IMG/VR virus record: IMGVR_UViG_3300003471_000084
Span: 1-62,083 of that record
Source of the DNA: a virus
Lineage: Duplodnaviria > Caudoviricetes
DNA length: 62,083 nucleotides
Reading direction: 5' to 3' (one strand)
The translations under genes and the position numbers were made by a program. Under the pieces are notes generated by a model. The model was not told the DNA's origin. It did no database searches and saw only the letters and a program-made list of their open reading frames with translations. Positions 538 to 60,370 of this stretch are shown one piece after another; position 1 is the stretch's first letter, and each line of letters opens with the position of its first letter.

Positions 538-1776
538 TTATCTTATTTTTTCAATTTCTTCTTTGAGCCATTTTAACTCTCGATCGGTATAGATCTTTTC
601 GGTAATATCCGATATTTTATGGCCTACTATATATTTGATCGCGTACTCATCAACCTCATATCTTTTAGCAGTCGTTACGAAATGTTTACGCCCATCATGA
701 GGTCTATGTTCCGGATTCAAGTTCAACTCATCGCGAATCCGATCAAATACATTTTTATATCGGCTATAAGTCAACTTGGTATTCTTTCGATTGCTATTTT
801 CATCAACATAATTTAGTAAGTATTTGCTTCCCAACTCCTGGGCCTCTTTATATTTTCTCTCCACAAGAGATTTAATACGAGAATGAATTGGAACAACTCT
901 ATCGGTTCCAGCGTCGGTTTTTATACCTCCGCTAAATGTTTCTTTTTCCAAATCAACATTAGCGAGTTCGATTAAACCGAGTTCTTGAGGTCTCCATCCA
1001 GAATAGCATTGAATAAGCACATCGTCAATAAAACGCTTATCATTTACATGCTGCCAAAGCAGTTCCATTTCTGCATCACTGAATGGTATATGCTCCTTCT
1101 TGACCGTCTGAATTTCTTTAATCGTTTCATCGGACAGAGTAAAGGTTCTGGAGTAGTTCCGATCTACGAGTTCATATTCCACGGCATAATCGAGCATTTG
1201 GTTAAACAGTGTTTTGATCTTGTTTTTCATAGAGGCATTTGGAGTTTGCTCTTTACCTTTAACTACGGCTTTACCTTCTTCCATACATCCCTTTATGTGC
1301 CGGGCTCTAATATCGACAACTCTCATATTGTAAATAGCCGTACAATATCTCCAAGCATCTTCAGTTCCTCGTTGACTGGATTCCCCAATTGTCTTGAAGT
1401 ATTCTACAGTCCATTTGTCGTAGAGCTCCTGAGCTGTAATCGACGGATTCAAATCATACGGATTCTTGTTATATTCGACCAAGGCTGTATATGCGTCATT
1501 ATATGTCGGAAAGTAGGATTCCGGTTTAAGAGGCTTGCAAATCGGCTTCCCTTTATCTGTTTTCCCAACCGTAACCATTGCCCGAAAAGGGTTTCGAAGG
1601 TTGCGGTTTTTTATTTCACTAATTTGGCCAAATCCATTTGGCAGCCTTCTTCTCTTGTTGTTGGTTTTACGAGGTTTCCTTGAGGATGCGTTTTCCTGCA
1701 TAGGATAACCACAATGAGGACAAGACAAAGCCTTATCACTAACCTGTAATTCACATTCGAGGCATTTAATTAACAT
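538..1776 (-). CDS. int: Tyrosine integrase with N-terminal zinc ribbon
   Basis: Catalytic R (SGWRPQEL), HDGRKH, VGH, Y (KIYT); N-terminal CLEC...CPHC; adjacent to att. Confidence 0.95.
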   Translation of the reverse strand: MLIKCLECELQVSDKALSCPHCGYPMQENASSRKPRKTNNKRRRLPNGFGQISEIKNRNLRNPFRAMVTVGKTDKGKPICKPLKPESYFPTYNDAYTALVEYNKNPYDLNPSITAQELYDKWTVEYFKTIGESSQRGTEDAWRYCTAIYNMRVVDIRARHIKGCMEEGKAVVKGKEQTPNASMKNKIKTLFNQMLDYAVEYELVDRNYSRTFTLSDETIKEIQTVKKEHIPFSDAEMELLWQHVNDKRFIDDVLIQCYSGWRPQELGLIELANVDLEKETFSGGIKTDAGTDRVVPIHSRIKSLVERKYKEAQELGSKYLLNYVDENSNRKNTKLTYSRYKNVFDRIRDELNLNPEHRPHDGRKHFVTTAKRYEVDEYAIKYIVGHKISDITEKIYTDRELKWLKEEIEKIR

Positions 1777-4691: not shown

Positions 4692-5051
4692 ATGCGATAT
4701 CACTATGAAAAGCCTGACATTTATGCCTCCATGTACGGAAAACTTTATATTTGTGAACATCCAGTTTATAGCGCCTGTACGCTATTTGAGATAGAAGATA
4801 AAGGCTTAGCAGTGATTCAGCAGCGTTTCGATTCCGATACAAAGAGTACATGGTGGTGCGAACTGGACCCTTGGTTGACGGATGACTTATACGTTCATCC
4901 CGGATTCAAGGAATATTTTGACCAACGTGCTAGAGAGTGTACGGACGGGTTATACCCTACCGTTACGGTCAGACAAATTATGTGGGCGTTAAAAATAAAA
5001 CCAATTCCTAAAGAACGGTGGGAGACAGTGTTTGATAGACGTGATATTTAA
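4692..5051 (+). CDS. Hypothetical phage protein
   Basis: RBS GGAG before ATG 4692 within ORF 4518..5051. Confidence 0.65.
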   Translation: MRYHYEKPDIYASMYGKLYICEHPVYSACTLFEIEDKGLAVIQQRFDSDTKSTWWCELDPWLTDDLYVHPGFKEYFDQRARECTDGLYPTVTVRQIMWALKIKPIPKERWETVFDRRDI

Positions 5052-5094
5052 GCGCAGATTTTACATTCCCTATTATGGAAGGATGGTGTATCTA

Positions 5095-5241
5095 ATGAAT
5101 AAGACGAAACTGATGTTAAAATGGCAAATGTTTATTGGTATGGCTAAGAAAAGAGGCGCTACCGAGGAGGAATTGTCCGTTTTAGTAAAAGCGGCTGATT
5201 TGATCAGAAAATATTGTCCCGAAATAAAAGAGGAGTCCTAA
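5095..5241 (+). CDS. Small hypothetical protein
   Basis: Between promoter motif 5053 and terminator 5229. Confidence 0.55.
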   Translation: MNKTKLMLKWQMFIGMAKKRGATEEELSVLVKAADLIRKYCPEIKEES

Positions 5242-5258
5242 CAAGGGCTCTTTCTTTT
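5229..5258 (+). terminator. Terminator, 27 bp identical to 7891-7917
   Basis: AGAGGAGTCCTAACAAGGGCTCTTTCT hairpin plus T tract. Confidence 0.75.
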
Positions 5259-5307
5259 ACGCTAAAATAACAACCTCTATTATGAAAACAATTTAGGAGG
5301 TAATGTT

Positions 5308-5484
5308 ATGAAAATCACCGATATGGTTATATCCGCTATTTTGAAGAAGGGTATTTTATACGAAGCTAGGAATGTAGACACAGATGTTGAAATTCCAATG
5401 GTTATAGAAAATCAGGAACGCAAAATTAAGATTAATATTAAATGTGAACACATGACACTGAGGATTGAAAAGGATGATAAGTAG
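5308..5484 (+). CDS. 58-aa hypothetical protein (MKITDMVISAILKKG...), not in ORF track
   Basis: RBS AGGAGG; between promoter motif 5260 and hairpin 5481-5506. Confidence 0.7.
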   Translation: MKITDMVISAILKKGILYEARNVDTDVEIPMVIENQERKIKINIKCEHMTLRIEKDDK

Positions 5485-5537
5485 GAGGCTTAGGCCTCTT
5501 ACTTTTGCATTTACGCGAAACTTACAAGGACTATTAT

Positions 5538-5616
5538 GAGAAACAGTTAGCTCAGTGGTAAGAGCGCAACACAACCGTTGAGGTCACGGGTTCGAATCCC
5601 GTACAGTTTCTCACCA
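5538..5616 (+). ncRNA. Atypical tRNA-like RNA (10-bp acceptor stem, 14-nt anticodon arm, encoded CCA)
   Basis: D arm GCTC-AGTGGTAA-GAGC; T arm ACGGG-TTCGAAT-CCCGT; 3' ACCA; anticodon arm CAAC-ACAACC-GTTG. Confidence 0.8.
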
Positions 5617-5666
5617 ACTTCTGGAGCTTACAAAGGCTCTTTAATTTTATGAAAGGAGACAGATAC

Positions 5667-6902
5667 ATGGAGAAGCTAATCGAAAAGCTTAACGCTGCAT
5701 CCAGAGCTTATTATAGCGGAACAGGCGAAATCATGTCAGACAAAGAGTTTGATACTCTATATGATGAGTTGAAAAAGCTGGAACATGAGACAGGAATAGT
5801 CTTACCAAATAGCCCGACACGAAATGTTGGGTATGAAGTTGTGTCTTCACTTTCAAAAACGCAACATGAGTATCCTTCCCTGTCTCTGGACAAGACCAAA
5901 GACCGGGATGACATGGTTCGTTGGCTTGGAGATCATCAAGGGGTTTTGTCTTGGAAATTAGATGGTTTAACTGTCATTCTGACTTACGATAACGGTAAGC
6001 TGGTAAAAGCTGCAACTCGTGGTGACGGAAATATTGGCGAGAACATCATCCACAATGCGCTATATTTCAAAGGCGTCCCCCATCGTATTGAGGATAAACG
6101 CCATATTGTTATTCGTGGCGAAGCTGTTATCCAACACGATACGTTTGAACGCATCAATGAATCCCTACCAGGCGATAAGCAATATAAGAATCCTCGAAGC
6201 ATGGTTTCGGGAGCAACAAGACTTCTTGATTCAAAGAAATCTTCCACATACGAAATAATCTTTATCCCCTTCGATTTGGTTAACGCTAGAGAGCTTGGGT
6301 TTGATTGTGTCGTAGAGAGTTTGATGCATATTTCCAGTATTGGAATGACACCTGTCGATTGGACGCCTGTCCGTGATAAGGATATTTCCGAGATTATTGA
6401 CCTCAAAGAACAAGAGGTGAAATTTTTTCCATATTCTACGGACGGCTTGGTTATAGTGTTCGATGATTTGTCTATCTGTGAAAAACTCGGAGCAACAGGT
6501 AAACATCCAAGATATGCAAAAGCTTTTAAATGGCCTGATACTCTTAAAACTACTGTTCTTCGAGGAGTTGATTGGTCAGTGGCAAAGAGCGGATTAATTA
6601 GCCCCGTTGCTATATTTGATCCGGTGGAACTTGAAGGAACTACTGTCAGAAGAGCCGGACTCCATAATCTTAGCATCATGCAAGAGCTAGGTCTCGGAAT
6701 CGGTGACCATATTAAAGTTTACAAAGCCAATATGATAATTCCTCAGATTTATGAGGATGTCGAGAAGACAACCAACATCCCTATTCCAACCGTATGCCCA
6801 GCGTGCGGTTCAGAGATAGAACGTCGAATTGGTGCAAATGGGAGGTCGGAATTCCTATATTGCATAAACAAGTCTTGCTCAGCGAAAGGAGAAAATAAAT
6901 GA
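5667..6902 (+). CDS. ligA: NAD-dependent DNA ligase, short form without HhH/BRCT
   Basis: AYY...SDKEFD (domain Ia), KLDG adenylation motif, TRGDG, OB fold, C-x2-C...C-x4-C zinc finger at the C-terminus. Confidence 0.9.
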   Translation: MEKLIEKLNAASRAYYSGTGEIMSDKEFDTLYDELKKLEHETGIVLPNSPTRNVGYEVVSSLSKTQHEYPSLSLDKTKDRDDMVRWLGDHQGVLSWKLDGLTVILTYDNGKLVKAATRGDGNIGENIIHNALYFKGVPHRIEDKRHIVIRGEAVIQHDTFERINESLPGDKQYKNPRSMVSGATRLLDSKKSSTYEIIFIPFDLVNARELGFDCVVESLMHISSIGMTPVDWTPVRDKDISEIIDLKEQEVKFFPYSTDGLVIVFDDLSICEKLGATGKHPRYAKAFKWPDTLKTTVLRGVDWSVAKSGLISPVAIFDPVELEGTTVRRAGLHNLSIMQELGLGIGDHIKVYKANMIIPQIYEDVEKTTNIPIPTVCPACGSEIERRIGANGRSEFLYCINKSCSAKGENK

Positions 6903-7684
6903 AAGGAATGCAAAAACTGTTCTACAGATCGACGCTATATTTTAAGCGTCATACTTCTACCATCCTAACCTGCATTGGTGCGGCCGGGGTGGTAGCAACT
7001 GCCGTAATGGCGGTAAAGGCGACTCCAAAGGCTATTCATCTTTTGGAGGAGGCTACAGACGAAAAAGGTGAAGAACTCACCAAACTGGAGGTTGTCTGTG
7101 TGGCAGGTCCGGTTTATATTCCGGCAGCCGCTGTTGGACTATCGACTATAGTCTGTATATTTGGGGCGAATGTCCTGAACCATCGGAATCAGGCAACATT
7201 GACAAGTGCCTATGCTATGTTGGACCAATCATTCAAACGATATCGAGAGGCTGCTAAGTCGGTCTACGGCGAAGATGCCGACTCTCGAATTAGGGCCGAA
7301 GTTGCTAAAAAGATTTCTGTTTATGACCCAGCATTCGGATATTCTGTCTTGAATGAGGATGCAGAGGAAAATGAAAGATTGTTCTATGACAGTTTCTCTC
7401 AGCGATATTTCTCATCGACGATGGCCTCGGTATTAAACGCTCAATACCATTTGAATCGAAACTTCGCTTTACGTGGTTGGGTTGATGTCAACGAGTTTTA
7501 TGAGTTTCTTGGACTCGAAGAGATCAATGGATGTGACGCCATTGGATGGTCGAGCGATGAGATGCTCGAAGGTGGGTTAATGCCTTGGGTTGATTTCAAC
7601 AATGAACTCGTCAAGATGGACGACGGGTTGGAGTGTTATATCGTATCGCCCTGTTGGGAACCGACCGTAATCGCCGTTGAATAA
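6899..7684 (+). CDS. DUF6353-like phage protein, paralog 1
   Basis: KRHTSTILTCIGAAGVVATAVMAVKATPK and NEFYEFLG motifs shared with 8949 and 10964. Confidence 0.75.
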   Translation: MKGMQKLFYRSTLYFKRHTSTILTCIGAAGVVATAVMAVKATPKAIHLLEEATDEKGEELTKLEVVCVAGPVYIPAAAVGLSTIVCIFGANVLNHRNQATLTSAYAMLDQSFKRYREAAKSVYGEDADSRIRAEVAKKISVYDPAFGYSVLNEDAEENERLFYDSFSQRYFSSTMASVLNAQYHLNRNFALRGWVDVNEFYEFLGLEEINGCDAIGWSSDEMLEGGLMPWVDFNNELVKMDDGLECYIVSPCWEPTVIAVE

Positions 7685-7735
7685 GCAAGTACGCATAAAT
7701 CACAAACACTATTATGAAAGGGAGGTGATTGCTTT

Positions 7736-7903
7736 ATGAACAGTAAATGGATTAAAGTTCTCGGAATTGTCGCAACTGCGATCGGAATGGGTGCAACACT
7801 CTTGACCGATTGGGTTAATGACAAGAAGACGGATGAAAAGATCGAAGAAAAAGTCAACGAAGCGCTTGCTAAACAGGCAAATAGAAATGGAGAGGAGTCC
7901 TAA
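7736..7903 (+). CDS. 55-aa small membrane protein (MNSKWIKVLGIVATAIGMG...), not in ORF track
   Basis: RBS GGGAGGTGA after promoter motif 7692; stop lies in terminator 7891-7917. Confidence 0.7.
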   Translation: MNSKWIKVLGIVATAIGMGATLLTDWVNDKKTDEKIEEKVNEALAKQANRNGEES

Positions 7904-8294
7904 CAAGGGCTCTTTCTATTTGCGCGAAAGGAGGGAGGCGGTCCGAATCCGTAACAATGAAATGTGTGACATAGCGATTTCTGTCATCAGCGAGTACATA
8001 AATAAACACTTTCCAGAAGATCCAGATCCAAAGTATCTGGAAGAATGCTTCGAAAATCAGAGCTATGCGAAGTGGGCGGCTTACGAATTGATCGATCGTC
8101 TTAACGCTGAAGCGGAAAGACTGCCTCCACATATCACAGAGTCATGGCGAGAACCTATACCACCGGTTGACATCATCGCAAGTTTCTTAGATGAAATCGA
8201 GTGCTGCATATACGAAGGATGCAATGAAAAACTCGAACACATCTTAACCATTGCCAAGGACGTTGGTGATGAGCTTATACTACTATTTTTGTAA
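7818..8294 (+). CDS. Hypothetical protein (true start probably near 7945-7962)
   Basis: ORF with strong RBS at 7929-7938; 5' part overlaps the upstream gene and terminator. Confidence 0.55.
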   Translation: MTRRRMKRSKKKSTKRLLNRQIEMERSPNKGSFYLRERREAVRIRNNEMCDIAISVISEYINKHFPEDPDPKYLEECFENQSYAKWAAYELIDRLNAEAERLPPHITESWREPIPPVDIIASFLDEIECCIYEGCNEKLEHILTIAKDVGDELILLFL

Positions 8295-8331
8295 CATCAA
8301 CTAAAGTTCTAAATTTGAAAGGAGAAAAATC

Positions 8332-8883
8332 ATGAAGGTATTAAGACAAAGAGAATTGGAAGTTAAGAATATTCGGGTTGGTGACCAGATCGTCATCCCG
8401 TTGGCTGAGCTTGGTGAATTTACCGCAACTGCGCAGAAAATCACAGACAAAGGACCGTTGTTCTTGTTTGACGAATGCATTGCAAAGCAGCCTATGAATA
8501 AGAAATGGACCAACAAAGGCGGTTATGAAAAATCGGATCTCCGAAAGTGGATCAACACGACGTTGCTGGATGCATTTCCGGAAGAATTGAAGAACAGGAT
8601 GAACAATCTTACCATTCCTACATACGGCCAGATATTCGGCCATGACGATTGGTATGATCGTGCTATAGAGCCTGACAGTGACGAGCAGTTTCCTCTCATG
8701 GTAATAAGAAAAAACCGTATTGCCGACTTCAACAACGACTACGAATGGTACTGGCTGGCAAACGCAACGAGAGAAGAAGTGTCTGCGTCTTCTTTCGCTC
8801 GTGTGTACCACGATGGCGGTACGTACTACGACGGCGCGTCGATCTCTCTTGGGGTTCGTCCGGCATTCGTGTTGGTTGACTAG
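8332..8883 (+). CDS. Remote DGR target: stand-alone DUF6273/C-type-lectin-like protein
   Basis: C-terminal VR matches TR; GGYEKSDL, IPTYGQIFG, QFPL, WYWL and GVRPAF motifs parallel those of 55076..56050. Confidence 0.88.
   Translation: MKVLRQRELEVKNIRVGDQIVIPLAELGEFTATAQKITDKGPLFLFDECIAKQPMNKKWTNKGGYEKSDLRKWINTTLLDAFPEELKNRMNNLTIPTYGQIFGHDDWYDRAIEPDSDEQFPLMVIRKNRIADFNNDYEWYWLANATREEVSASSFARVYHDGGTYYDGASISLGVRPAFVLVD
8780..8863 (+). repeat. DGR variable repeat VR2
   Basis: 84 bp colinear with TR 57119-57202; 15 mismatches, all at TR adenines. Confidence 0.95.
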
Positions 8884-8908
8884 ATCTCCGCCCCTCGTGG
8901 GCGGGATC
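8883..8908 (+). other. Post-VR2 GC-rich hairpin (DGR homing element)
   Basis: GATC-T-CCGCCC-CTCGT-GGGCGG-GATC; same position and loop type as the hairpin after VR1. Confidence 0.75.
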
Positions 8909-8948
8909 AACGAAGTACGAATAAATCAAGTAAAGAAGGAGAACAAAT

Positions 8949-9710
8949 ATGGGCAAATTTAACATATCAAACATTGCTAAAAGTGTACGGACGGCAATGA
9001 AAAAACATAGTCCGGAGATTCTTACTGGCATTGGGGTTGCTGGTATGATCACCACCGCTGTACTGGCGGTAAGAGCTACGCCAAAAGCCCTTATTCTCAT
9101 TGAAGAGAAAAAAGATGAGCTGGAAGTGGACGAGCTTACACCTGTCGAAACGGTCAAGGCTGCGTGGCCTTGTTATATTCCGGCGGCTATCACTGGCGTT
9201 CTATCAACAGCTTGCCTTATCGGTGCAAGCTCTGTAAATGTTCGACGAAACGCTGCGCTAGCAACTGCCTATACTCTTTCCGAGTCCGCTCTCAAGACCT
9301 ATCAGGAAAAGGTTATCGAAACGATCGGTGAGAAAAAGGAGCAGGATGTTAGGGACGCCGTAGCCAAGGATCATGTTACAAGAAATCCGGTTCGCAGCAA
9401 CGAAGTCATAATAACCGAGAGGGGTAATACGCTCTGCTTGGATGTTCTTTCTAAGCGATATTTCAGATCCGATATCGACAAATTGAAAAAGGCTGAGAAT
9501 GAACTTAACCGTCAGATGAGAAACGATATGTTTATATCACTCAATGAGTTCTATGACGAACTTGGGTTAGACCACATCGATATAGGTGACGATTTTGGAT
9601 GGGATATCGATAAGGGGTATATCGAGTTGGATTTCAGCTCGCAGCTTGCTTCTGATGGAACTCCGTGCCTTGTCATAGGACATAGTAATCGACCAGATTA
9701 TCGTCGCTGA
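8949..9710 (+). CDS. DUF6353-like phage protein, paralog 2
   Basis: KKHSPEILTGIGVAG...LNEFYDELG. Confidence 0.75.
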   Translation: MGKFNISNIAKSVRTAMKKHSPEILTGIGVAGMITTAVLAVRATPKALILIEEKKDELEVDELTPVETVKAAWPCYIPAAITGVLSTACLIGASSVNVRRNAALATAYTLSESALKTYQEKVIETIGEKKEQDVRDAVAKDHVTRNPVRSNEVIITERGNTLCLDVLSKRYFRSDIDKLKKAENELNRQMRNDMFISLNEFYDELGLDHIDIGDDFGWDIDKGYIELDFSSQLASDGTPCLVIGHSNRPDYRR

Positions 9711-9791
9711 GGTTCTTCTCTTCGCGAAAATAACACAGCCTTTAATGGAAGAACAAAGTAAACTTTTCTAAATTTGAAAGGAGAAATAACA

Positions 9792-10043
9792 ATGGAAACC
9801 AACGAAATCATGAACAATGAAGAGGTTATTGAAGTAACTGAGGGAATCGCAACTGCGAGTTCTGGTAAAGGTTTAAAGATTGCTGTCGGCATTGGTTTGG
9901 CTGTACTTGCGAGCGGACTCGCTTATCGGTACATCGTCAAGCCGATGGTGGCAAAAATCAAGACCGGTAAGGAAGAGCGGAAGATTTTCGTAGTGAACGA
10001 TGATCGATTCAACAATGACGAAGAGGAACCGGAGGAAAACTGA
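9792..10043 (+). CDS. Small membrane protein
   Basis: RBS TTGAAAGGAGAAA; TM segment; between promoter motif 9723 and terminator 10068-10102. Confidence 0.65.
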   Translation: METNEIMNNEEVIEVTEGIATASSGKGLKIAVGIGLAVLASGLAYRYIVKPMVAKIKTGKEERKIFVVNDDRFNNDEEEPEEN

Positions 10044-10126
10044 ATTAGAAAAACAGAGTTCGGATAAGGGAGAGTACCTATAACAAGGTGCTTTCCCTTT
10101 TTCGTTTCCTGGAGAGGAGGAAATCT

Positions 10127-10318
10127 ATGAATCGATATACATACGACGGACCGGTTATGGAGTTTGAGAATTGTATTTACGATCGTTGGAAAGCTTCTAC
10201 GTACGCCGTATCTGAAAGCAAAGCAAAGAGCAATCTTGCTTACCAATTCAAGAAAAATCACAATAGAGTACCTAACACAAAGATTACTCTGCCCGGGAAA
10301 CTTGTTTTGGTTCAGTGA
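10127..10318 (+). CDS. Hypothetical phage protein
   Basis: RBS GAGGAGG before ATG 10127. Confidence 0.65.
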   Translation: MNRYTYDGPVMEFENCIYDRWKASTYAVSESKAKSNLAYQFKKNHNRVPNTKITLPGKLVLVQ

Positions 10319-10333
10319 AAGGAGACTATATAG

Positions 10334-10948
10334 ATGCAAGAATACAAGGCAAATTCCCATAAATCCAAAGAAGAGCAGAGCGATCCTGTTCCTGAAAAGA
10401 AAGTGGAAAAGGTAATTGCTGGAACAGTCAAGTCCAAAAAGAAAGGCGAGCTTCAAAAATTTACTGACGTCTTTATTTCAGAAGATGTCGGCAAGGTAAA
10501 GTCTTATATTCTGATGGACGTACTGATTCCAGCATTGAAAAAAGCCATATCAGACATCGTAACAAACGGTATTGATATGATTCTTTATGGCGAAACCGGA
10601 AACACAAAGAAAAATACCCCCGGATCTAAGGTGTCCTATAGGAGCTATTACGACCGGGCCAATGATCGCAGAGACGATAGACGTGACAATGACAGGACAA
10701 GATCCGGCTACAACTACGACGATATCATTTTGGATAATCGTGGTGAAGCGGAGGATGTTCTTTCCAGCATGGATGAGCTGGTGTCTACTTACGGTTTGGT
10801 TAGCGTCGCAGATTTGTATGATTTGGTCGGTATCACCGGCAATTATACGGATAACAAGTACGGATGGACTAATCTACAGAGTGCCTCCGTGGTTCGAGTA
10901 AGAGAAGGCTACATGCTCAAACTCCCCAAAGCACTACCATTAAAATAA
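10334..10948 (+). CDS. Hypothetical phage protein
   Basis: RBS AAAGGAG; C-terminal SVADLYDLVG...YGW resembles the DUF6353 C-terminal motif. Confidence 0.7.
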   Translation: MQEYKANSHKSKEEQSDPVPEKKVEKVIAGTVKSKKKGELQKFTDVFISEDVGKVKSYILMDVLIPALKKAISDIVTNGIDMILYGETGNTKKNTPGSKVSYRSYYDRANDRRDDRRDNDRTRSGYNYDDIILDNRGEAEDVLSSMDELVSTYGLVSVADLYDLVGITGNYTDNKYGWTNLQSASVVRVREGYMLKLPKALPLK

Positions 10949-10963
10949 AAGGAGATTTTAACC

Positions 10964-11893
10964 ATGAAAACAGCAGGTATTATGAATAGCGTTAGCAAGA
11001 CCTTTAACAAGGTCGGCTTCCAGCTTAAAAAACATAGCCCGGAGATTTTAGTCATTGCGGGCGTTGTTGGTGTTGTTACCAGTGCCGTTATGGCTTGTAA
11101 GGCTACCACCAAGGTAAGCGAAATTCTGGACCAGACCAAGGAAGACGTCGATAAGATTCACGGAGTTCTGGCTGATGAATCCTTGAGCGAAGAGTACACC
11201 ATCGAAGATAGCAGAAAAGATTTAGCGGTTGTTTACGCCCAGACAGGTATCAAGCTGGTGAAGCTTTACGGTCCTTCGGTGCTGCTCGGTGCCCTATCGA
11301 TTACTGGAATTCTGGCATCCAACAATATTCTTCGCAAGAGGAATGTGGCTCTGGCGGCGGCATATGCAACCATTGACAAAGGTTTCAAAGAGTACAGAAG
11401 CCGCGTAGTCGAGCGTTTTGGTGAAGAAATTGACCGTGAGCTGAAATACAACATTAAAGCCAAGAAGATCGAGGAAATTGTCGTTGACGAAAACGGCAAG
11501 GAAAAGAAGGTCAAGAGCACTATCAACGTGGCTGACCCTAACACTTACAGCGACTACGCTCGTTTCTTTGACGATGGATGCAAGTATTGGGAGAAAAATT
11601 CAGAATCTAATCTGTTTTTCCTTAAATCAGAACAGAACTTCGCCAATGACCGCCTCAGAGCGAGGGGTTATTTGTTCTTGAACGAAGTCTACGAACGACT
11701 TGGTATTCCGACAACGAAGGCTGGTCAGATTGTCGGTTGGGTATATAATCCCGATCAGCCCAACGGTGATAACTACGTTGATTTCGGAATCTATGATATT
11801 TTCAAAGAGAAGGCTCGTGATTTTGTAAACGGTTACGAGCGGTCAATTCTTCTTGACTTCAACGTTGATGGTAACATCCTGGACTTGATGTAA
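10964..11893 (+). CDS. DUF6353-like phage protein, paralog 3
   Basis: KKHSPEILVIAGVVG...LNEVYERLG...VGW. Confidence 0.75.
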   Translation: MKTAGIMNSVSKTFNKVGFQLKKHSPEILVIAGVVGVVTSAVMACKATTKVSEILDQTKEDVDKIHGVLADESLSEEYTIEDSRKDLAVVYAQTGIKLVKLYGPSVLLGALSITGILASNNILRKRNVALAAAYATIDKGFKEYRSRVVERFGEEIDRELKYNIKAKKIEEIVVDENGKEKKVKSTINVADPNTYSDYARFFDDGCKYWEKNSESNLFFLKSEQNFANDRLRARGYLFLNEVYERLGIPTTKAGQIVGWVYNPDQPNGDNYVDFGIYDIFKEKARDFVNGYERSILLDFNVDGNILDLM

Positions 11894-11968
11894 ATGTCCA
11901 GATACTCTTGACTACCCTTGGGTCTTTCATATGGCCTGAGGGTAGTTCTTTATTTAAGGAGACTTTAC

Positions 11969-12484
11969 ATGCGAAGGACAATTCAAATACTCATCATCTC
12001 TTTGATGGTCGGTTTAGTATTCGCATCATGTGCGAAGCCTGAAACCCAGACAAATGAGATGGTACAAGAATCGGTGGTGATCGCAGAGCCTGTTAACTCG
12101 ATCATTCCTACTCACATTAGTCGTCCACAAGAAACGGTGATTCCAAAAGAGGAACCTTTTTCAGACGAAGAAGTTGAAGCTATATCAAAAACCTTAGCTG
12201 GAGAATGCTACGATGATAAATTGAACGATAAGCGAAAAGTCGTCGAGGTTATTCTTAACCGTGTTTCCGATGGTCGATTCGGAGATAGCGTTATCGAAGT
12301 AGTCACGGCGAAAGGTCAATTTAACGGCTATTGGAAACAAAGTCGTTCTGTCAGCGACAGTGATATTCGGATTGCCAAGGAAACTCTCCGTGATTGGTAT
12401 AGCAATGATTGTAAAAAGTTATCCGAATATCTATTCTTCTGCGCTGGATCAAACCGGGAAAACAAATTTCGAACGAAATATTAG
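11969..12484 (+). CDS. SleB-like cell wall hydrolase, putative lipoprotein
   Basis: Signal peptide with FASC lipobox-like motif; LAGE catalytic Glu, VILNRV, EVV..KGQF. Confidence 0.75.
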   Translation: MRRTIQILIISLMVGLVFASCAKPETQTNEMVQESVVIAEPVNSIIPTHISRPQETVIPKEEPFSDEEVEAISKTLAGECYDDKLNDKRKVVEVILNRVSDGRFGDSVIEVVTAKGQFNGYWKQSRSVSDSDIRIAKETLRDWYSNDCKKLSEYLFFCAGSNRENKFRTKY

Positions 12485-12500
12485 GAAGGAGCAAATAACA

Positions 12501-12617
12501 ATGACTAGAGGGTTAGCATTTATATCTTACATGTTATCGGCTATGGCCGGTATCTGTTTTGTCGGCGGTATCGCCGTATTATCTGGAGGAGGTAAAGTCA
12601 AGAATGGATGGGCTTGA
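12501..12617 (+). CDS. Small hydrophobic protein
   Basis: RBS AAGGAG; single TM. Confidence 0.55.
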   Translation: MTRGLAFISYMLSAMAGICFVGGIAVLSGGGKVKNGWA

Positions 12618-12762
12618 AAACCTCATAGCAACTTTCGACTACATACTGGATACCAAACGTAAAAGACATATTATGGGCGGTATCCTGTTGAGTGTTTCCT
12701 TCCTATTCGGAGGGTTGGCTCTTACAGTCATGACTATCAAAAAGGAGAATAACGATGAATAA
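12604..12762 (+). CDS. Small membrane protein
   Basis: RBS GGAGG; TM segment. Confidence 0.6.
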   Translation: MDGLENLIATFDYILDTKRKRHIMGGILLSVSFLFGGLALTVMTIKKENNDE

Positions 12763-13363
12763 ATTTGGAAGTTTTCTGATGTTTGTCATCGGTGCTGCTG
12801 TCGGCTCTGTTGCAACATGGCAAATCGTCAAGAAAAAATACGAGCAAATCGCTCAGGATGAGATCGACTCGGTCAAAGAGGTATTCTCTAACAAGAAAAC
12901 TAATGAAGCCGATAACGCCGATGTCCGCAATAAGGCTAATCAGGCGAAAGAAAAACCTGGGGTAGCCGAATACGCGGCAATGCTGAATAAGCAGGGGTAT
13001 ACCAACTATTCAAACAAGGAAGCGAATGTAAAAGACGCTTCTGTCAAAAAAGAGGAGGGTCAAGTGTCAATGGCAGCAGACAAACCTTATGTAATCGAGC
13101 CGGAAGAGTTTGGCGAAGCTGACGGTTATGAGCAAATCAGCCTCACCTACTACGCCGATCAGGTTCTGGCCGACGAGGACGATGACTTAGTCGAAGACGT
13201 TGAGAACGTCGTCGGATTCGAGTCTCTGGAAAGCTTTGGAAAGTTTGAGGACGATTCGGTATTTGTCAGGAATGACAGACTGAAATGCGATTTCGAGATT
13301 CTCCTTGACCAAAGAAATTATTCAGATGTCCGTAAGCTAAAGCCGCATCAGAGGGAGGATTAA
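12755..13363 (+). CDS. Hypothetical protein, N-terminal membrane anchor, acidic C-terminal domain
   Basis: RBS AAGGAG; overlaps upstream stop. Confidence 0.7.
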   Translation: MNKFGSFLMFVIGAAVGSVATWQIVKKKYEQIAQDEIDSVKEVFSNKKTNEADNADVRNKANQAKEKPGVAEYAAMLNKQGYTNYSNKEANVKDASVKKEEGQVSMAADKPYVIEPEEFGEADGYEQISLTYYADQVLADEDDDLVEDVENVVGFESLESFGKFEDDSVFVRNDRLKCDFEILLDQRNYSDVRKLKPHQRED

Positions 13364-13927
13364 ATGACCAGAGACGAGCTGAACAACGAATATTTCGATT
13401 GGATGTACCAGCTCGTATGCAATGAGAACTATTTTAAGGGCCTGTCCCATCGGAAGCTTTTAAGTTATTTGCATAGCGTGGATTTCACATACACGATTGC
13501 GATGGATGGTAATAGAGCTGAAGATGGGATAGACCTTAGATATCGATTTGGTTACGAGCGTGGTTACGCCGGGCCTATAATTGCGTCATATTTGGATGAT
13601 CGGGCTTGCAGTGTCTTAGAGATGCTGGTGGCTCTAACCATTCGATGTGAGGAACATATTATGGACGATCCCGATGTAGGCAATCGAACAGGACAATGGT
13701 TCTGGAACATGATCGTAAATCTTGGTTTAGGACGAATGAACGATATTCAGTTTTTAAAGACCTACGTGGATGGTGTCATATCGAAATTCCTTGACCGAGG
13801 ATACGAACGAAATGGTGCTGGCGGACTATTTGTTCTCAAGCACTGTAACCGCGACATGAGGTCTATCGAAATTTGGTACCAGATGTGTTGGTACTTGGAC
13901 GAAGTTTTGGGAAGCAGGAGGTGTTAA
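13364..13927 (+). CDS. Hypothetical phage protein
   Basis: RBS GGAGG; directly follows upstream stop. Confidence 0.7.
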   Translation: MTRDELNNEYFDWMYQLVCNENYFKGLSHRKLLSYLHSVDFTYTIAMDGNRAEDGIDLRYRFGYERGYAGPIIASYLDDRACSVLEMLVALTIRCEEHIMDDPDVGNRTGQWFWNMIVNLGLGRMNDIQFLKTYVDGVISKFLDRGYERNGAGGLFVLKHCNRDMRSIEIWYQMCWYLDEVLGSRRC

Positions 13928-13929
13928 TA

Positions 13930-14124
13930 ATGATCAGTTATATTTTAGGAAGCCTACAAGCTACTGAAAAAGCACTCAGGCGTCAAACGAGGATTACAGC
14001 CGTAGCCCTCTTAGTCGCAAATATCGGGTTTTGGGTTATGACGACCCGTTTGAAAGAAAAAGACAAACAAATTGAAAAGCTCAACAATGAACTTGAGGAG
14101 CTTAAGCGCGCCGAAGGAGAATAA
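13930..14124 (+). CDS. Small membrane/coiled-coil protein
   Basis: RBS AGGAGG before ATG 13930. Confidence 0.6.
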   Translation: MISYILGSLQATEKALRRQTRITAVALLVANIGFWVMTTRLKEKDKQIEKLNNELEELKRAEGE

Positions 14125-14130
14125 CATGCA

Positions 14131-33543: not shown

Positions 33544-33550
33544 ACTAACC

Positions 33551-33802
33551 ATGCAAAACACATGCATGTTAACTACGTTTGACAATCCTTTCAATCCGTT
33601 CGAACAGTTCACTTCTTGGCTTTTGTTCGACATGGAAAAAGGATACAACTCTTGTGCTTACTTGGCAAGAATTGCTCGAACTTCTGATCAGCTTTCGGAA
33701 GAAGAAAACAATTTGGAAGTTGAAAGAGCGATTGATGAGATAGTCAAGCATGACTTCCGTAATATCTACAAGAAAGTAAAACAACAAGTTACAAGTGCTT
33801 AA
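33551..33802 (+). CDS. Hypothetical phage protein
   Basis: RBS AAAGGAG; LTTFDNPFNPF motif. Confidence 0.7.
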   Translation: MQNTCMLTTFDNPFNPFEQFTSWLLFDMEKGYNSCAYLARIARTSDQLSEEENNLEVERAIDEIVKHDFRNIYKKVKQQVTSA

Positions 33803-55075: not shown

Positions 55076-56050
55076 ATGAAAATTACAGATTACGAAAAGG
55101 TCTCAAACCTCGCAATAAACAATGTGTTTTTGATTGACGGGGATAATGGTACCAAAACAATCATGGCTTCCGATCTTGCGAAAGCTTTGGTTAAGCTTCT
55201 AAGCTCTAAGGATTTTATTTCAGGGGTAAATCTTTCAGAGCTTGATCAGATCAATGCTCTGTCAGCAAGTGACAAGATTCTTATTGGAACGTCGGCCGGA
55301 AACAAGGCTATCGGAGCAAATGACGCGCTTTTTGCAATGCTTGATGCTTTCATTGCTCCGGAGCAGCGTCGTGTTACTTTCAGAGGAAAGAATTTAGGAT
55401 CAGTCTTTACCCCTGAGCAAAAGACAAACATTCAAAATGGAACATTCAAAGGGTTTTTCCTTGGTGACTATTGGGTTATCGGCGGCCACACCTGGCGTAT
55501 TGTAGACTTTAATTATTGGTATAATTGCGGGGATACTGCATTTACCAATAATCATCTTGTCATTATGCCTGACGTTGCTTTGTATAATGCACAAATGAAT
55601 GCTGAAAATGTAACAACTGGCGGCTATGTTGGATCGCTGATGTATACGACCAATCTTGCAAATGCTAAAACCATTATCAATTCAGCTTTCGGCAGTTCGG
55701 TGCTAACGCATAGAGATCTTCTCGTAAATGCCGTAGCGAATGGCGCTCCTTCAGGTCATGCATGGTACGATTCTTCGGTGGAACTCCCTAACGAAATTAT
55801 GATGTATGGAAGTTATATCTTTTCTCCGGCTGCAAATGGAACCACGATCCCGTATCTTTATACCATCAACAAAACACAATTGGCGCTGTTCCAGGTCGTA
55901 CCAAAATTCATTGTGAATAGATCATACAATCAATGGTTGAGGGATGTCGTGTCTGCGTCTTTTTTCGCTTTTGTGGGCAGCATTGGCCTTACGACCTACC
56001 ACTACGCGTCGAACTCTTTTGGGGTTCGTCCGGCATTCCCTATTGGTTAG
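55076..56050 (+). CDS. DGR target 1: putative receptor-binding tail protein with C-terminal lectin-like domain
   Basis: End of tail module; C-terminal VR; ends GVRPAFPIG. Confidence 0.88.
   Translation: MKITDYEKVSNLAINNVFLIDGDNGTKTIMASDLAKALVKLLSSKDFISGVNLSELDQINALSASDKILIGTSAGNKAIGANDALFAMLDAFIAPEQRRVTFRGKNLGSVFTPEQKTNIQNGTFKGFFLGDYWVIGGHTWRIVDFNYWYNCGDTAFTNNHLVIMPDVALYNAQMNAENVTTGGYVGSLMYTTNLANAKTIINSAFGSSVLTHRDLLVNAVANGAPSGHAWYDSSVELPNEIMMYGSYIFSPAANGTTIPYLYTINKTQLALFQVVPKFIVNRSYNQWLRDVVSASFFAFVGSIGLTTYHYASNSFGVRPAFPIG
55950..56033 (+). repeat. DGR variable repeat VR1
   Basis: 84 bp colinear with TR; 14 mismatches, all at TR adenines. Confidence 0.95.
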
Positions 56051-56052
56051 CT

Positions 56053-56077
56053 AATCTAGGGGCCTTGTGCCCCGATT
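56053..56077 (+). other. Post-VR1 GC-rich hairpin (DGR homing element)
   Basis: AATC-TA-GGGGC-CTTGT-GCCCC-GATT. Confidence 0.75.
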
Positions 56078-56151
56078 TTTTATTTCCAGTACGCAGGTTA
56101 CGGAAATTCATGTTATAACTAAGAAAAACAATGAAAGGAATGGGATTTATA

Positions 56152-56463
56152 ATGGAAGAAAAAATCTATAAAATTACTTTAGCTGACGGTTCGATCATCG
56201 ACAACTTGAAGCTAAACGGCAACAATTTCATTTCCCAAGAAAGCGTTGATCCGGAGATTTTTAATGGGAATTGCTCCCCTGTAATAATCAGCGACGGTTC
56301 TAACGACGAGCTTCATGATCATATGGACCTTGTGCAGATTACTAAGGGTTCTGCTGAGGACTATTGGTTCGTTCTCCGTGATATCTCCATCGAGGAACTT
56401 ACACGGATGAAGATGCAGTCAGACATCGAATACGTAGCAATGATGGCTGGCGTAACACTTTAA
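56152..56463 (+). CDS. Hypothetical tail-associated protein (XkdW-like position)
   Basis: Ends DIEYVAMMAGV; precedes XkdX-like gene. Confidence 0.6.
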   Translation: MEEKIYKITLADGSIIDNLKLNGNNFISQESVDPEIFNGNCSPVIISDGSNDELHDHMDLVQITKGSAEDYWFVLRDISIEELTRMKMQSDIEYVAMMAGVTL

Positions 56464-56478: not shown

Positions 56479-56619
56479 ATGGAACATAGCAAGAATTACG
56501 GTAAGGTAAAGAGTTGGTACGACCTGAAGATGTGGCCCGAGTCTCGTGTGCGCGATGCTGTTGTAATGAACTGGATTACCGAAGACGAGTTCACTGAAAT
56601 CACCGGTAAGGCGTATTAA
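56479..56619 (+). CDS. XkdX-like small protein, not in ORF track
   Basis: KVKSWY...W...V..AV...WITEDEFTEITG.Y; RBS GGAGG. Confidence 0.75.
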   Translation: MEHSKNYGKVKSWYDLKMWPESRVRDAVVMNWITEDEFTEITGKAY

Positions 56620-57110
56620 TGAGTGTTCTCGTAAGTGACCGAAAAGAGTCCAAATTCGAGGCAATAACTTACTCGGTCGAGTTGAGAAATCTAATCATTG
56701 AACTTATGCAACGGGGATTCGGTATCAAAGATTTGAATGCTGTCGCTCGTCAACGGTATATATTTGGAAAAGACAATATAGAGAATCCAGCGAAATACGT
56801 TTATTTGATACAGACTTTTAAAGAGCGAATCCATTTGACGGCTTCTTTAGTAACGAGTAACGTAAGGGCTGCTAACTCTATTTATCCGACCTCTCTTGCA
56901 GAATACGAACAGAGACGAGGTTATCAGAATATCGCCATAGCCAACTGTGAACAGCTTATTTCTGAGCTACAGCAAATTGTCGAGGTCTTCGACGTTGATA
57001 TCAATATCTATGGCAAATACATCCAAGCTATCGACCGAGAAATCGGTTTGATAAAGAAATGGCGTCAACGCGACAACAAGATTAAGTCACATCTACAGGG
57101 TAACATCTAA
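56619..57110 (+). CDS. avd: DGR accessory variability determinant (Avd-like four-helix bundle)
   Basis: Immediately upstream of TR and RT; helical, ends IGLIKKWRQRD. Confidence 0.75.
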   Translation: MSVLVSDRKESKFEAITYSVELRNLIIELMQRGFGIKDLNAVARQRYIFGKDNIENPAKYVYLIQTFKERIHLTASLVTSNVRAANSIYPTSLAEYEQRRGYQNIAIANCEQLISELQQIVEVFDVDINIYGKYIQAIDREIGLIKKWRQRDNKIKSHLQGNI

Positions 57111-57118: not shown

Positions 57119-57202
57119 TGTCTGCGTCTTATTTCGCTAATGTGAACAACAATGGCAATACGAACTACAACAACGCGTCGAACTCTAATGGGGTTCGTCC
57201 GG
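57119..57202 (+). ncRNA. DGR template repeat (TR)
   Basis: Intergenic between avd and RT; ten AAY triplets and 23 adenines; differs from VR1 and VR2 only at A. Confidence 0.95.
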
Positions 57203-57312: not shown

Positions 57313-58509
57313 ATGACTTATGAGGAAATCGCTTGCGATGCCAACAACTTGTATGGGGCTTACAAGGCTTCTGTGAAAGGTAGCAAATGGAAAGAAACTA
57401 CTCAGAAGTTCATGATGAATTTCTTGAGGTACATCTTTTCTATTCAAGAGGACCTTATCAATCGCACTCTTCAAAATAGTGCGACAGATGAGTTTTCGCT
57501 ATCTGAACGAGGCCGAGTAAGACCCATTACAAGTATTCCAACAAGAGATCGCATAATCAGACACGTGCTATGTGACGAAGTTTTACTTCCAGAAGTCCGG
57601 AAGCACATCATATACGATAACGGAGCCTCGATTAAAGGGAGAGGAATCTCTCATTCAAGAAATCGATTCGAGGTTCATCTAAGAAAGTATTATAAGGCAC
57701 ACGGTAGCGAAGGTTATATTCTGTTTGGCGATTTCAGTAAGTTTTACGATAATATTATTCACGAAATTGCCAAGAGGGAGCTTTTGAAGCTGCTCGGAGA
57801 CGACGAGTTCGTAGATTGGTTACTTACTCTGATATTTGACGAATTTAGAATTGACGTTTCTTATATGTCAGATGAAGAGTACACAACTTGTATGACCGAC
57901 ACCTTCAACAAACTTGAATATAGGTTAATCCCTAAAGATCTTCTCACCGGCGAGAAATGGATGGATAAGTCTGTTAACATTGGCGATCAGTTGAGCCAGA
58001 TTATCGGTATCTACTATCCGCATCGAATGGACAATTACGTTAAATACGTAAGAAGCCAGAAGTTCTATGGAAGATATATGGATGACTGGTATATTATGAG
58101 CCCAAGCAAAGAAGAATTGCAGGATTTGCTTGAAAATATTCGAGTAATAACCAGCGAACTTGGCATTCATATCAACGAAAAGAAAACTCATATCGCAAAG
58201 ATTAACAGCACCTACAAATATTTGCAGGTTAAATACTCACTTACGAGTACCGGTAAAATCATCAAGCGAATGAACCCAACACGAGTTACCGCCATGCGTA
58301 GAAAACTTAAGAAGCTGGCCGTTAAAGTTCGAAACGGTGAAATCATCTACGATCATGTCGAGAATATGTTTCGTAGTTGGATGGGAAGTTTCTACAAGCT
58401 GTTATCAAAGCAACAACGACTCAACTTAATATCGCTCTATGAGGACCTCTTCGATAAAAAGATTAAGGTCGTCAACAAAAAACTTATCGTAGAGGAGGTT
58501 CACACATAA
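57313..58509 (+). CDS. DGR reverse transcriptase
   Basis: RDRIIRH, GDFSKFYDNI, IGDQLSQ, YGRYMDD, INEKKT; adjacent to TR. Confidence 0.95.
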   Translation: MTYEEIACDANNLYGAYKASVKGSKWKETTQKFMMNFLRYIFSIQEDLINRTLQNSATDEFSLSERGRVRPITSIPTRDRIIRHVLCDEVLLPEVRKHIIYDNGASIKGRGISHSRNRFEVHLRKYYKAHGSEGYILFGDFSKFYDNIIHEIAKRELLKLLGDDEFVDWLLTLIFDEFRIDVSYMSDEEYTTCMTDTFNKLEYRLIPKDLLTGEKWMDKSVNIGDQLSQIIGIYYPHRMDNYVKYVRSQKFYGRYMDDWYIMSPSKEELQDLLENIRVITSELGIHINEKKTHIAKINSTYKYLQVKYSLTSTGKIIKRMNPTRVTAMRRKLKKLAVKVRNGEIIYDHVENMFRSWMGSFYKLLSKQQRLNLISLYEDLFDKKIKVVNKKLIVEEVHT

Positions 58510-58927: not shown

Positions 58928-58939
58928 GAGGTGTTACAT

Positions 58940-59671: not shown

Positions 59672-59684
59672 GAAGGAGGTTATT

Positions 59685-60358: not shown

Positions 60359-60370
60359 AGGAGGTAGATT

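Follow-up and report, generated by a model that had tools for sequence, protein, structure and literature searches.

A two-target diversity-generating retroelement in a phage genome and its small DUF6273 target encoded in the early/replication region

The 62,083-nt stretch of phage DNA analysed here (the window) almost certainly carries a working diversity-generating retroelement (DGR) with two targets, a tail-region protein encoded beside the DGR cassette (target 1) and a small DUF6273 protein encoded far from it (target 2). The gapless 84-nt alignment of the template repeat (TR) with the remote variable repeat (VR2) has all 15 mismatches at TR adenines, and the 14 mismatches between TR and the cassette-adjacent repeat (VR1) are likewise confined to adenines; with 23 A in 84 nt the chance of such adenine-only patterns is 3.3e-11 for VR2 and 2.6e-10 for VR1. 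The two VRs have the same codon phase and agree at just 5 of the 23 adenine sites (4 unchanged adenines and 1 identical substitution), bearing out the original prediction that a single TR serves two independently mutagenised targets. The sequences flanking these matches are unrelated on both sides, and self-BLAST of the whole window recovered TR/VR1 and TR/VR2 as the only A-biased repeat pairs. [quoted passage not shown] As the cDNA acts in trans, the distance between TR and VR2 would be irrelevant.

Table 1. Features of the two-target DGR in the window
Feature	Coordinates	Strand	Description or basis
Target 2, 183-aa soluble single-domain DUF6273 protein, predicted C-type-lectin fold	8332..8883	+	Pfam, PHROG, AF2 model
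VR2, remote variable repeat	8780..8863	+	encodes residues ~150-177 of 183; 15/15 mismatches at TR A
GC-rich 3' end of VR2 (GGGGTTCGTCCGG), candidate IMH core	8851..8863	+	common to TR, VR1 and VR2
GC-rich hairpin downstream of VR2, candidate target-recognition element	8883..8908	+	core stem-loop 8888-8904; DNA fold dG -12.4 kcal/mol, z -4.15
Target 1, 324-aa tail-region protein	55076..56050	+	C-terminal ~170 aa in the domain family of target 2; N-terminal ~155 aa extra
VR1, cassette-adjacent variable repeat	55950..56033	+	14/14 mismatches at TR A
Hairpin downstream of VR1	56059..56073	+	GGGGC-CTTGT-GCCCC, then T-run; z -2.0; conserved in relatives
110-aa ORF between target 1 and Avd	56131..56463	+	66% identical ORF at the same place in relative G001
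Avd accessory protein	56619..57110	+	phrog_3206 'Avd protein of DGR', E 2.9e-10
Template repeat (TR)	57119..57202	+	23 adenines, 10 in-frame AAY codons
DGR reverse transcriptase (RT)	57313..58509	+	Pfam RVT_1 E 2e-17; phrog_1423 E 1.8e-59

The cassette resembles the BPP-1 and Treponema TvpA DGRs in its AAY-rich TR and its combination of Avd and RT, and differs from that of BPP-1, which has a single, adjacent target. Target 1 is preceded by genes for Dit (51932), a Gp37-like protein (52850) and a phrog_1220 protein (53930). The 110-aa ORF downstream of it matched neither Pfam nor PHROG, and Avd had no Pfam match. The RT gene starts 111 nt past the end of the TR, and its product is 80-84% identical to the RTs of the relatives G006-G009. 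TR, VR1 and VR2 diverge immediately after the shared GC-rich 13-mer, which is unchanged in the VR2s of all 7 DGR-positive genomes and has synonymous changes in 4/6 DGR-less relatives. The original prediction had distinguished IMH from IMH* by a one-base indel (CATTC in the VRs, ATTC in the TR); this fits the window, but the relatives show merely an end of homology with differing flanks, constant after the TR and variable after the VRs. A GC-rich hairpin or cruciform downstream of the VR is a feature of DGRs described for BPP-1, and candidate elements of this type are present at both VRs of the window. The one downstream of VR2 is not followed by a T-run and is absent from terminator-like sites. 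In G006-G009 a hairpin with a CTTGT loop follows 9/9 VRs, both VR1s and remote VRs, and in G001 the copy after VR2 is imperfect.

Several lines of comparison indicate that VR2 is a live target: 1) The TR of G001 departs from that of the window at positions other than A, and the two VRs of G001 track their own TR, with 12/12 and 18/18 mismatches at A. 2) The same holds, measured against their own TRs, for G006 (16/17 and 20/21 mismatches at A), G007 (14/14, 18/18 and 19/19), G008 (13/15 and 14/14) and G009 (15/16 and 16/16), and the VR2 of every DGR-positive relative reproduces the non-A changes of its TR. 3) Of the 12 columns that vary most among 49 family members, 11 are AAY/TAT codons of the TR. 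4) All 61 non-A positions of VR2 are identical to the TR, against ~76% DNA identity to G001 in the remainder of the gene. 5) In a 97%-alike contig from another sample, 13 of the 40 listed differences fall within the 84 nt of VR2, 11 of them at TR-A sites, so that close strains, as represented by assembled contigs from other samples, carry different VR2 alleles. 6) The homologous VR2 of the Roseburia phage Shimadzu has been diversified experimentally (Cornuault et al., bioRxiv 10.1101/575076). The co-variation of TR and VRs, the variability of AAY codons and the strain alleles together support what appears to be ongoing mutagenic homing into VR2. The original prediction would have treated VR2 as a frozen relic had A-specific variation been missing from relatives; such variation is present. 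That VR2 was diversified once, its likeness to the TR being a leftover in a gene that receives no present homing, is therefore already disfavoured and to our minds scarcely credible, even though the gene looks frameshifted in G001, where the hairpin is imperfect, and can evidently persist without homing, as 6 of the 11 larger metagenomic relatives keep it in the absence of both RT and TR.

To characterize target 2 we combined profile searches with structure prediction. It belongs to Pfam DUF6273 (PF19789; E 5e-12, 46.4 bits against a gathering cut-off of 23.5) and to phrog_21980 (E 1e-77), and its family comprises 778 representative clusters. An AF2 model built from a diverse 77-sequence alignment reached a pLDDT of 96.7 and a pTM of 0.91, whereas 49 close homologues alone gave a pLDDT of 42. 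In VIA-align comparisons, the model matched the DUF6273 NTD of 9qa6 (Z 15.4, rmsd 2.0 Å over 154 residues), TvpA (2y3c; Z 8.2) and the BPP-1 protein Mtd (1yu0; Z 5.5). Many C-type lectin domains scored Z 6-7, and C-type lectin-like domains make up nearly all 50 chains among the matches listed. On this model target 2 adopts the CLec fold, as had been anticipated from its sequence, and carries its VR at the domain's C-terminal end as in DGR variable proteins, including Mtd and TvpA. Residues 10-183 of the model align to one DUF6273 domain, and Pfam detected no further domain. Mtd forms a trimer at the tip of the tail fibre, and its N-terminal part consists of beta-prism and beta-sandwich domains (cited in PMC10743442); these trimerising/attachment domains are absent from target 2. 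Nor does it have the architecture of the tentaclins, in which an N-terminal DUF6273 domain with a 5'-proximal VR precedes Ig-like/Fn3 domains (Baykov et al. 2023, PMC10743442): its VR is 3' and Pfam finds no Ig or Fn3 domain. The predicted lack of a signal or TM segment is upheld by a hydropathy scan (maximal 19-residue Kyte-Doolittle mean 0.83). Target 2 had also been described as a stand-alone copy of the domain at the tip of the tail protein. Its residues 38-181 do align with residues 157-323 of target 1 in hhalign (probability 98.6%, 137 columns), placing both in one domain family, but it is not a recent copy, since their identity is only ~28-29% even with the templated VR included.

PDB sequence searches with the family profile of target 2 and with a DUF6353 paralog returned nothing significant. 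We also considered whether family members of 306-308 aa are fusions with the upstream neighbour (7818-8294), and rejected this (BLASTP E 1.9); their N-terminal part has no Pfam domain. An antisense ORF of 189 aa (8341-8910) is taken as a chance occurrence because it is open at full length in only 7/47 relatives.

The gene for target 2 lies between those for an NAD-ligase (5649-6902) and a DNA polymerase-primase (14131-18111) on the same strand, a position that agrees with its predicted siting among early genes. Most of its immediate neighbours encode membrane-anchored proteins, TM proteins of unassigned family, and a gene for a cell-wall hydrolase (Hydrolase_2, carrying an export signal) is also among them. 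The lineages examined agree in encoding the small target in the early/replication region and not in the structural module. Its homologue lies with DNA polymerase I and a helicase in Fontainebleau, between methyltransferases and Erf in Shimadzu, with a methyltransferase and a rep protein in Dulem virus 34, with a DNA polymerase, a helicase-primase and a nearby methyltransferase in L006, with thymidylate synthase in L052, and with a repressor and a helicase in L055. Shimadzu and Dulem virus 34 also encode a cell-wall hydrolase close to the homologue, and Hydrolase_2 was detected in 2/5 distant records, in only 1 of them above the cut-off. An obligate partnership of the small target with DUF6353 was considered and rejected: PF19880 occurs in 1/5 distant records, at least ~13 kb from the target. 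An atlas look-up of DUF6353 gave DUF6353 clusters only, without function, and our literature search found no paper mentioning it. A promoter scan of 5000-14500 gave 20 sites against 17.8 expected, no better than chance.

The original prediction placed this gene ~48 kb from the TR, which is correct for the linear provirus record. In syntenic relatives, however, VR2 lies 9.1-9.7 kb downstream of the TR, across the RT-integrase junction, and the separation in the window would be 13.7 kb via the circular junction, provided that the prophage begins and ends where the window does. The 48-kb distance is an effect of prophage linearisation and holds for the integrated form only. The proposed survey of related phages for the same remote target found a tail-side VR together with a VR in a small early-region DUF6273 gene in three named phages (Shimadzu, Fontainebleau and Dulem virus 34) and in 5/11 larger metagenomic relatives. 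The frameshifted appearance of the gene in G001 means that it is dispensable at least there, or that the assembly is in error. A tblastn search with the target 2 protein at E 1e-5 recovered only Fontainebleau and Shimadzu and no Toutatis-group record, and megablast of 5600-12500 against named phages gave no match.

Remote small DUF6273 second targets have already been published, in Shimadzu, in Toutatisvirus and in Faecalibacterium prophages. Shimadzu carries one TR and two VRs, VR1 in a tail gene and VR2 in orf43 (bioRxiv 10.1101/575076), whose product is a homologue of target 2 (28.5% identity); we re-found the A-only mismatches (15/15). Both VRs were diversified in experiment, in 2% of virion reads with 10-15 changes per VR, and the accessible text of that paper is silent on the gene context and fold of orf43 (bioRxiv 10.1101/575076). 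The window phage differs from Shimadzu, a myovirus whose replication module is of another type and whose TR is longer (~111-129 nt). In Toutatisvirus and the Faecalibacterium phages Lelie and CP11, the gene with the second VR is described as coding for a small DUF6273 protein and lying 17.5 kb from the TR (bioRxiv 10.1101/2024.10.15.618418; PMC11792537). [quoted passage not shown] The Quimbyvirus ('Quimbyviridae') DGR is described as having a pair of C-type-lectin targets, the first encoded beside the tail genes and the second, termed 'non-structural', away from the structural module (Benler et al. 2021, Microbiome 9:78, PMC8008677). Target 2 shares this location outside the structural module. 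The likeness drawn here is one of layout. Quimbyvirus is a Bacteroides phage with, unlike the window, a frameshifted RT, and its second target lies on the opposite strand among genes for a nuclease, methyltransferases and a tRNA ligase. The idea that a non-structural target acts in phage-host conflict was also published for Quimbyvirus (PMC8008677). Hence, of the original prediction the two targets of one TR, the stand-alone lectin-fold domain without export signals, the non-structural region and the live status of VR2 stand, while its novelty was overstated and its 48-kb distance does not carry over to other forms of the genome.

As to the function of target 2, we tentatively favour, with confidence a little short of even, a soluble single-domain binder that does not join the virion, is produced together with the early/replication gene products and serves in phage-host conflict rather than adsorption, its ligand being a variable one of the host or of a competitor. 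The DGR would reprogram ~11 surface positions of the 183-aa protein, which would be made inside the infected or induced cell. This reading is supported by the position of the gene outside the structural module throughout the lineages examined, the absence from the protein of any signal or TM segment, its single domain without the anchoring part that target 1 possesses, and the retention of the gene in relatives without RT or TR, which, because they keep it, suggests that target 2 is useful even without ongoing diversification. On the other side, gene position is not the same as expression timing, the membrane proteins and the cell-wall hydrolase among its neighbours hint at the envelope rather than the cytoplasm, and the seemingly frameshifted G001 gene may be dispensable. 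Phage decoration and accessory binding proteins can, moreover, be encoded outside the structural cluster. Every characterised DUF6273 context is extracellular or virion-borne, the contexts being the tentaclins (PMC10743442), a secreted, wall-anchored IgA peptidase and giant proteins with 7-11 tandem DUF6273 stretches. In the accessible literature, authors mostly guess at receptor binding for small second targets.

The extracellular DUF6273 contexts also speak for a virion-borne accessory binder, possible though somewhat unlikely, which would attach non-covalently to the tail or capsid, as decoration or as a 'swappable tip', and whose second adsorption specificity the DGR would tune. Target 2 shares its fold with the phage receptor-binder Mtd and with TvpA and is homologous to the tail-region target 1, with the same TR in the same frame. 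Receptor binding is favoured by the nd4/nd12 authors (PMC10743442) and, for their small target, by those of Toutatisvirus (bioRxiv 10.1101/2024.10.15.618418; PMC11792537), and both VRs were mutated in 5/5 ultravirulent isolates of Shimadzu (bioRxiv 10.1101/575076). Against such a role, none of the lineages examined has the gene in the structural module, the protein has neither the N-terminal domains of Mtd nor an equivalent of the ~155-residue N-terminal part of target 1, and the available text of the literature on these systems reports no virion proteomics.

We consider it quite improbable that target 2 is a lysogenic-conversion or released lectin, produced from the prophage or freed at lysis or in vesicles, that binds glycans on other cells or surfaces to the benefit of the lysogen or of released phages. 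A DGR-diversified, Hoc-like DUF6273 protein of Mushuvirus is reported to be made in lysogens and to occur in the secretome and in vesicles (2026 preprint 10.64898/2026.05.08.723808), and the envelope-directed gene cluster around target 2, with its TM proteins and a Hydrolase_2 that carries an export signal, as well as the cell-wall hydrolases of Shimadzu and Dulem virus 34, would suit such a protein. Yet target 2 has no signal peptide, its gene in the window runs in the direction of the lytic-cycle replication genes that surround it and is not placed by the integrase/repressor region, the promoter scan was no better than chance and the DUF6353 neighbours are lineage-specific.

Taking the intracellular binder further, small stand-alone DUF6273 proteins might constitute a widespread class of early-expressed, DGR-programmable 'antibody-like' binders, retargeted through adenine mutagenesis so as to neutralise or hijack variable host factors such as defence proteins. 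Unrelated Firmicutes phages would keep them at one set position among their replication genes, and a DGR cassette on the tail side, gained and lost over time, would act on them in trans; in this general form we think the proposal rather unlikely. The target gene outlives the DGR, and the cis elements appear to begin drifting after DGR loss. The usual view of phage DGRs is that they alter host range through receptor-binding proteins. An early-region second target without a virion-anchoring domain would carry programmed hypermutation into a further stage of the phage life cycle. The idea of a non-structural target has been in print since 2021; the present case adds to it a large and easily recognised family, with Shimadzu/Roseburia intestinalis and Fontainebleau/Acutalibacter muris as tractable models.

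[quoted passage not shown] The 15 mismatches of VR2 and the 14 of VR1 fall exclusively at TR adenines (15/15 and 14/14), with chance probabilities of 3.3e-11 and 2.6e-10 respectively for 23 adenines in 84 positions. At the 23 adenine sites the two VRs coincide only five times, four of these being unchanged adenines, and hence each was mutagenized independently, as had been proposed. Because both share an identical codon phase, the ten AAY codons and one TAT codon of the TR are in frame in both targets. All three repeats end 3' in GGGGTTCGTCCGG, where homology stops. A proposed one-base indel separating IMH from IMH* is consistent with the window, but in relatives the flank past the repeat is variable on the VR side (CATTC, TCTTC, AGTTC) and constant on the TR side; hence, the IMH limits are only candidate boundaries. 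Self-BLAST of the entire 62-kb record recovered no further adenine-biased repeat pair.

Features of the 62,083-bp record, in order along the sequence
Feature	Position	Strand	Remarks
Integrase	538-1776	-	left end
NAD-ligase	from 5649	+	early/replication region
Three DUF6353 paralogs (PF19880, phrog_2152)	6899-7684, 8949-9710, 10964-11893		interleaved with other genes; each with N-terminal TM anchor
Two small TM proteins	within 6899-13363
One more N-terminally anchored protein	within 6899-13363
Target 2	8332-8883	+	between ligase and DNA polymerase, same strand as both
VR2	8780-8863		in target 2
Hydrolase_2 cell-wall hydrolase	11918-12484		N-terminus signal- or lipoprotein-like
DNA polymerase-primase	14131-18111	+	early/replication region
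Single-strand annealing protein, helicase, NrdD	after DNA polymerase-primase	+	early/replication region
Terminase	36001		structural region
Tape measure	45678-51935		structural region
Dit, Gp37-like protein, phrog_1220 protein	after tape measure		structural region
Target 1	55076-56050		DGR cassette
VR1	55950-56033		in target 1
110-aa ORF	between target 1 and Avd		DGR cassette
Avd	56619-57110		DGR cassette; phrog_3206
TR	57119-57202		84 nt, 23 A
RT	57313-58509		DGR cassette; after TR

Five lines of evidence, drawn from sequence comparison, indicate that VR2 is a live DGR target. In a 95% complete syntenic relative (G001) the TR has diverged from that of the window at several non-A positions, which are mirrored in both of its VRs, and the mismatches of these VRs lie at adenines in 12/12 and 18/18 cases; outside the VR its homologue of target 2 shows only ~76% DNA identity to that of the window. 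In four other relatives the adenine-site mismatches per VR are 16/17 and 20/21 (G006), 14/14, 18/18 and 19/19 (G007), 13/15 and 14/14 (G008), and 15/16 and 16/16 (G009). Of the 12 columns that vary most across 49 family members (64-77% identity), 11 are exactly the TR AAY/TAT codons. A comparison of strains 95-99% alike over a 2-kb stretch, made with contigs (not reads) from other samples, places 13 of the 40 differences listed, out of 97 rows, within the 84-nt VR2, 11 of them at TR-A sites and the remaining two where related TRs depart from that of the window. Further, 22-28 nt past each VR of the window and of G006-G009, be it tail-side or remote, lies a GC-rich hairpin whose loop is CTTGT; the copy after the G001 VR2 is imperfect, and that after the window VR2 (z -4.15) lacks a T-run and was not called a terminator. 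The 13-nt GC-rich end of VR2 is unchanged in all seven VR2s of DGR-positive genomes but has been altered synonymously in four of the six relatives that lack the DGR (simple hypergeometric 0.021, ignoring relatedness), which suggests that constraint on it relaxed after DGR loss and was counted toward a live VR2. Diversification of the homologous VR2 of phage Shimadzu was shown experimentally (bioRxiv 10.1101/575076).

The 183-aa product of target 2 matches Pfam DUF6273 with 46.4 bits (cut-off 23.5) and phrog_21980 with E 1e-77. An AlphaFold2 model built on a diverse 77-sequence alignment reached pLDDT 96.7 and pTM 0.91 (pLDDT 42 with close homologues only), and predicts a single domain throughout (residues 10-183). 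Exhaustive structural comparison gave as best match, at Z 15.4 (rmsd 2.0 A over 154 residues), the N-terminal DUF6273 domain of an IgA peptidase secreted by Thomasclavelia ramosa. Lower Z scores were obtained for the C-terminal domain of Legionella Lcl (8.7), TvpA, a variable protein of a DGR (8.2), a Bacteroides fimbrial tip protein (7.8), dozens of C-type lectin domains (6-7) and Mtd (5.5). As had been noted, there is no signal or TM segment, the maximum 19-residue Kyte-Doolittle mean being 0.83. Target 1 has ~155 additional N-terminal residues, and hhalign assigns its C-terminal ~170 to the same family (98.6%, 137 columns); at ~28% identity, target 2 is therefore a stand-alone version of the tail-side domain, as claimed, but to call it a copy goes too far. 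Column 59 of the family (W in the window), which lies outside the VR and has no TR template, varies to the same degree as the VR codons, with the fourth-highest entropy (3.17), and in the folded protein this residue may adjoin the VR face.

Target 2 had been placed among early genes, which holds in that it lies between ligase and DNA polymerase, but its closest neighbors (6899-13363) are mainly membrane-anchored proteins and not classical replication genes. The Atlas gives no function for DUF6353, and a literature search did not find the family name; another relative (G013) likewise has three paralogs. In three lineages the early region also encodes, apart from the lysis genes and within a few genes of the small DGR target, an enzyme that cleaves peptidoglycan (Hydrolase_2 or lytic transglycosylase): the window, Shimadzu (orf40) and Dulem virus 34 (32828-33745 of its record); Hydrolase_2 is present in 2 of 5 distant records. 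No more than 7 of 47 relatives keep the antisense ORF spanning target 2 (8341-8910, minus strand, 189 aa) open throughout, the median being 97 codons, and it is therefore probably due to chance. Elsewhere, an 894-aa protein (30859-33543), which has an HTH-like stretch at its C-terminus, gives a full-length match to phrog_4291 (E 0); the label of that family, "RNA-dependent RNA polymerase", is odd for a dsDNA siphovirus. The ~3.5 kb of small ORFs between RT and integrase (58931-62083 and 1-312) have no counterpart in G001, where the integrase follows the RT almost directly; they may be lysis genes, morons or partly host flank.

The original prediction had VR2 remote from the TR by ~48 kb. This is true of the linear record (48.3 kb), but measured across the circular junction the two are no more than 13.7 kb apart. 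In G001 the order is permuted (target 1, Avd, TR, RT, integrase on the minus strand, early genes, target 2), with VR2 9.1 kb downstream of the TR, and in G008 (100% complete, direct terminal repeats) it lies ~9.7 kb downstream; thus, the 48.3 kb reflect integrated-prophage geometry. As DGR cDNA works in trans, the distance has no effect on the mechanism, though "remote" loses some of its weight. The G001 small gene (10001-10529 of locus L005) itself looks frameshifted, with tblastn giving two segments in different frames and a premature stop behind a stretch rich in A, and is either a pseudogene or the product of misassembly; its VR2 still equals its TR at all non-A sites.

A word-indexed search recovered 1,080 family proteins at E<=1e-3, most of the 120 matches listed being exactly 183 aa long. 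Clustering at 50% identity gives 778 clusters for the family. Giant members with 7-11 tandem copies, namely P0140 (3,973 aa, 11 DUF6273-like stretches), P0204 (3,404 aa, 9) and P0266 (2,439 aa, 7), are presumably surface adhesins. Of 48 viral loci, 43 had a called target ORF, which in 36 of these 43 lies within four genes of a DUF6353 gene, a figure that reflects one syntenic phage clade. Seven loci have other contexts, e.g. near DNA polymerase and helicase-primase (L006), after thymidylate synthase (L052) or between repressor-like regulators and helicase (L055). DUF6353 as an obligate partner was rejected, since it occurs in one of five distant records, at least ~13 kb away. RT, TR, VR1 and VR2 are all present in 5 of 11 larger relatives; the other six, including the complete G003 (100%, terminal repeats), retain the small gene and lack both TR and RT, the latter by a search whose positive control works. 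One of the five, the 99%-complete provirus G007, carries a pair of small targets in its early region (~6380-6467 and ~8317-8404) besides the tail-side one, and thus three VRs for one TR. Our own TR/VR scan found the two-VR layout in three named phages: Acutalibacter phage Fontainebleau (small gene by DNA polymerase I and helicase; VR2 adenine mismatches 15/15), Roseburia phage Shimadzu (by methyltransferases and Erf; 15/15) and Dulem virus 34 (by adenine methyltransferase and rep protein; 15/16). The records of Fontainebleau (ON453893) and Dulem virus 34 (PP511788) have no annotated TR or VR, and the accessible text of the Fontainebleau paper yielded no mention of a DGR or RT.

The invariable early/replication-module address of the small gene across unrelated replication modules, its lack of anchoring domain and export signals, and its retention where the DGR is absent together lead us to favor, tentatively, an early role of target 2 off the virion. 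That it is instead a virion accessory is rather unlikely on this evidence, though every characterized DUF6273 context is extracellular, target 2 is homologous to the tail-region target 1 and shares its template, and published opinion leans to receptor binding for small second targets (PMC10743442; bioRxiv 10.1101/2024.10.15.618418). Expression in lysogens or release, to which the envelope-directed neighborhood lends some color, appears improbable. That VR2 is a relic is very hard to credit, given adenine-specific variation across relatives, with VRs tracking their own TRs in G001 and G006-G009, and among strain alleles.

The layout is of a known kind and its novelty modest. Small second DUF6273 targets are in print as distant from the cassette in Shimadzu (bioRxiv 10.1101/575076), Toutatisvirus (bioRxiv 10.1101/2024.10.15.618418), and Lelie and CP11 (PMC11792537), and within it in nd4 and nd12 (PMC10743442). 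The original observation is confirmed and its interpretation backed in part. The central idea has been in print since Benler et al. 2021, whose abstract already has a non-structural second target of Quimbyvirus in phage-host conflict (PMC8008677). What may be modestly new is the generalization that one recognizable family stays in the early module in siphovirus and myovirus lineages alike, a small target gene that outlives its DGR, and first signs of cis-element drift once the DGR is lost, none of which was found stated in the accessible text of papers on such targets. The main draw is the role of these small hypervariable proteins, a question that is now easily testable.
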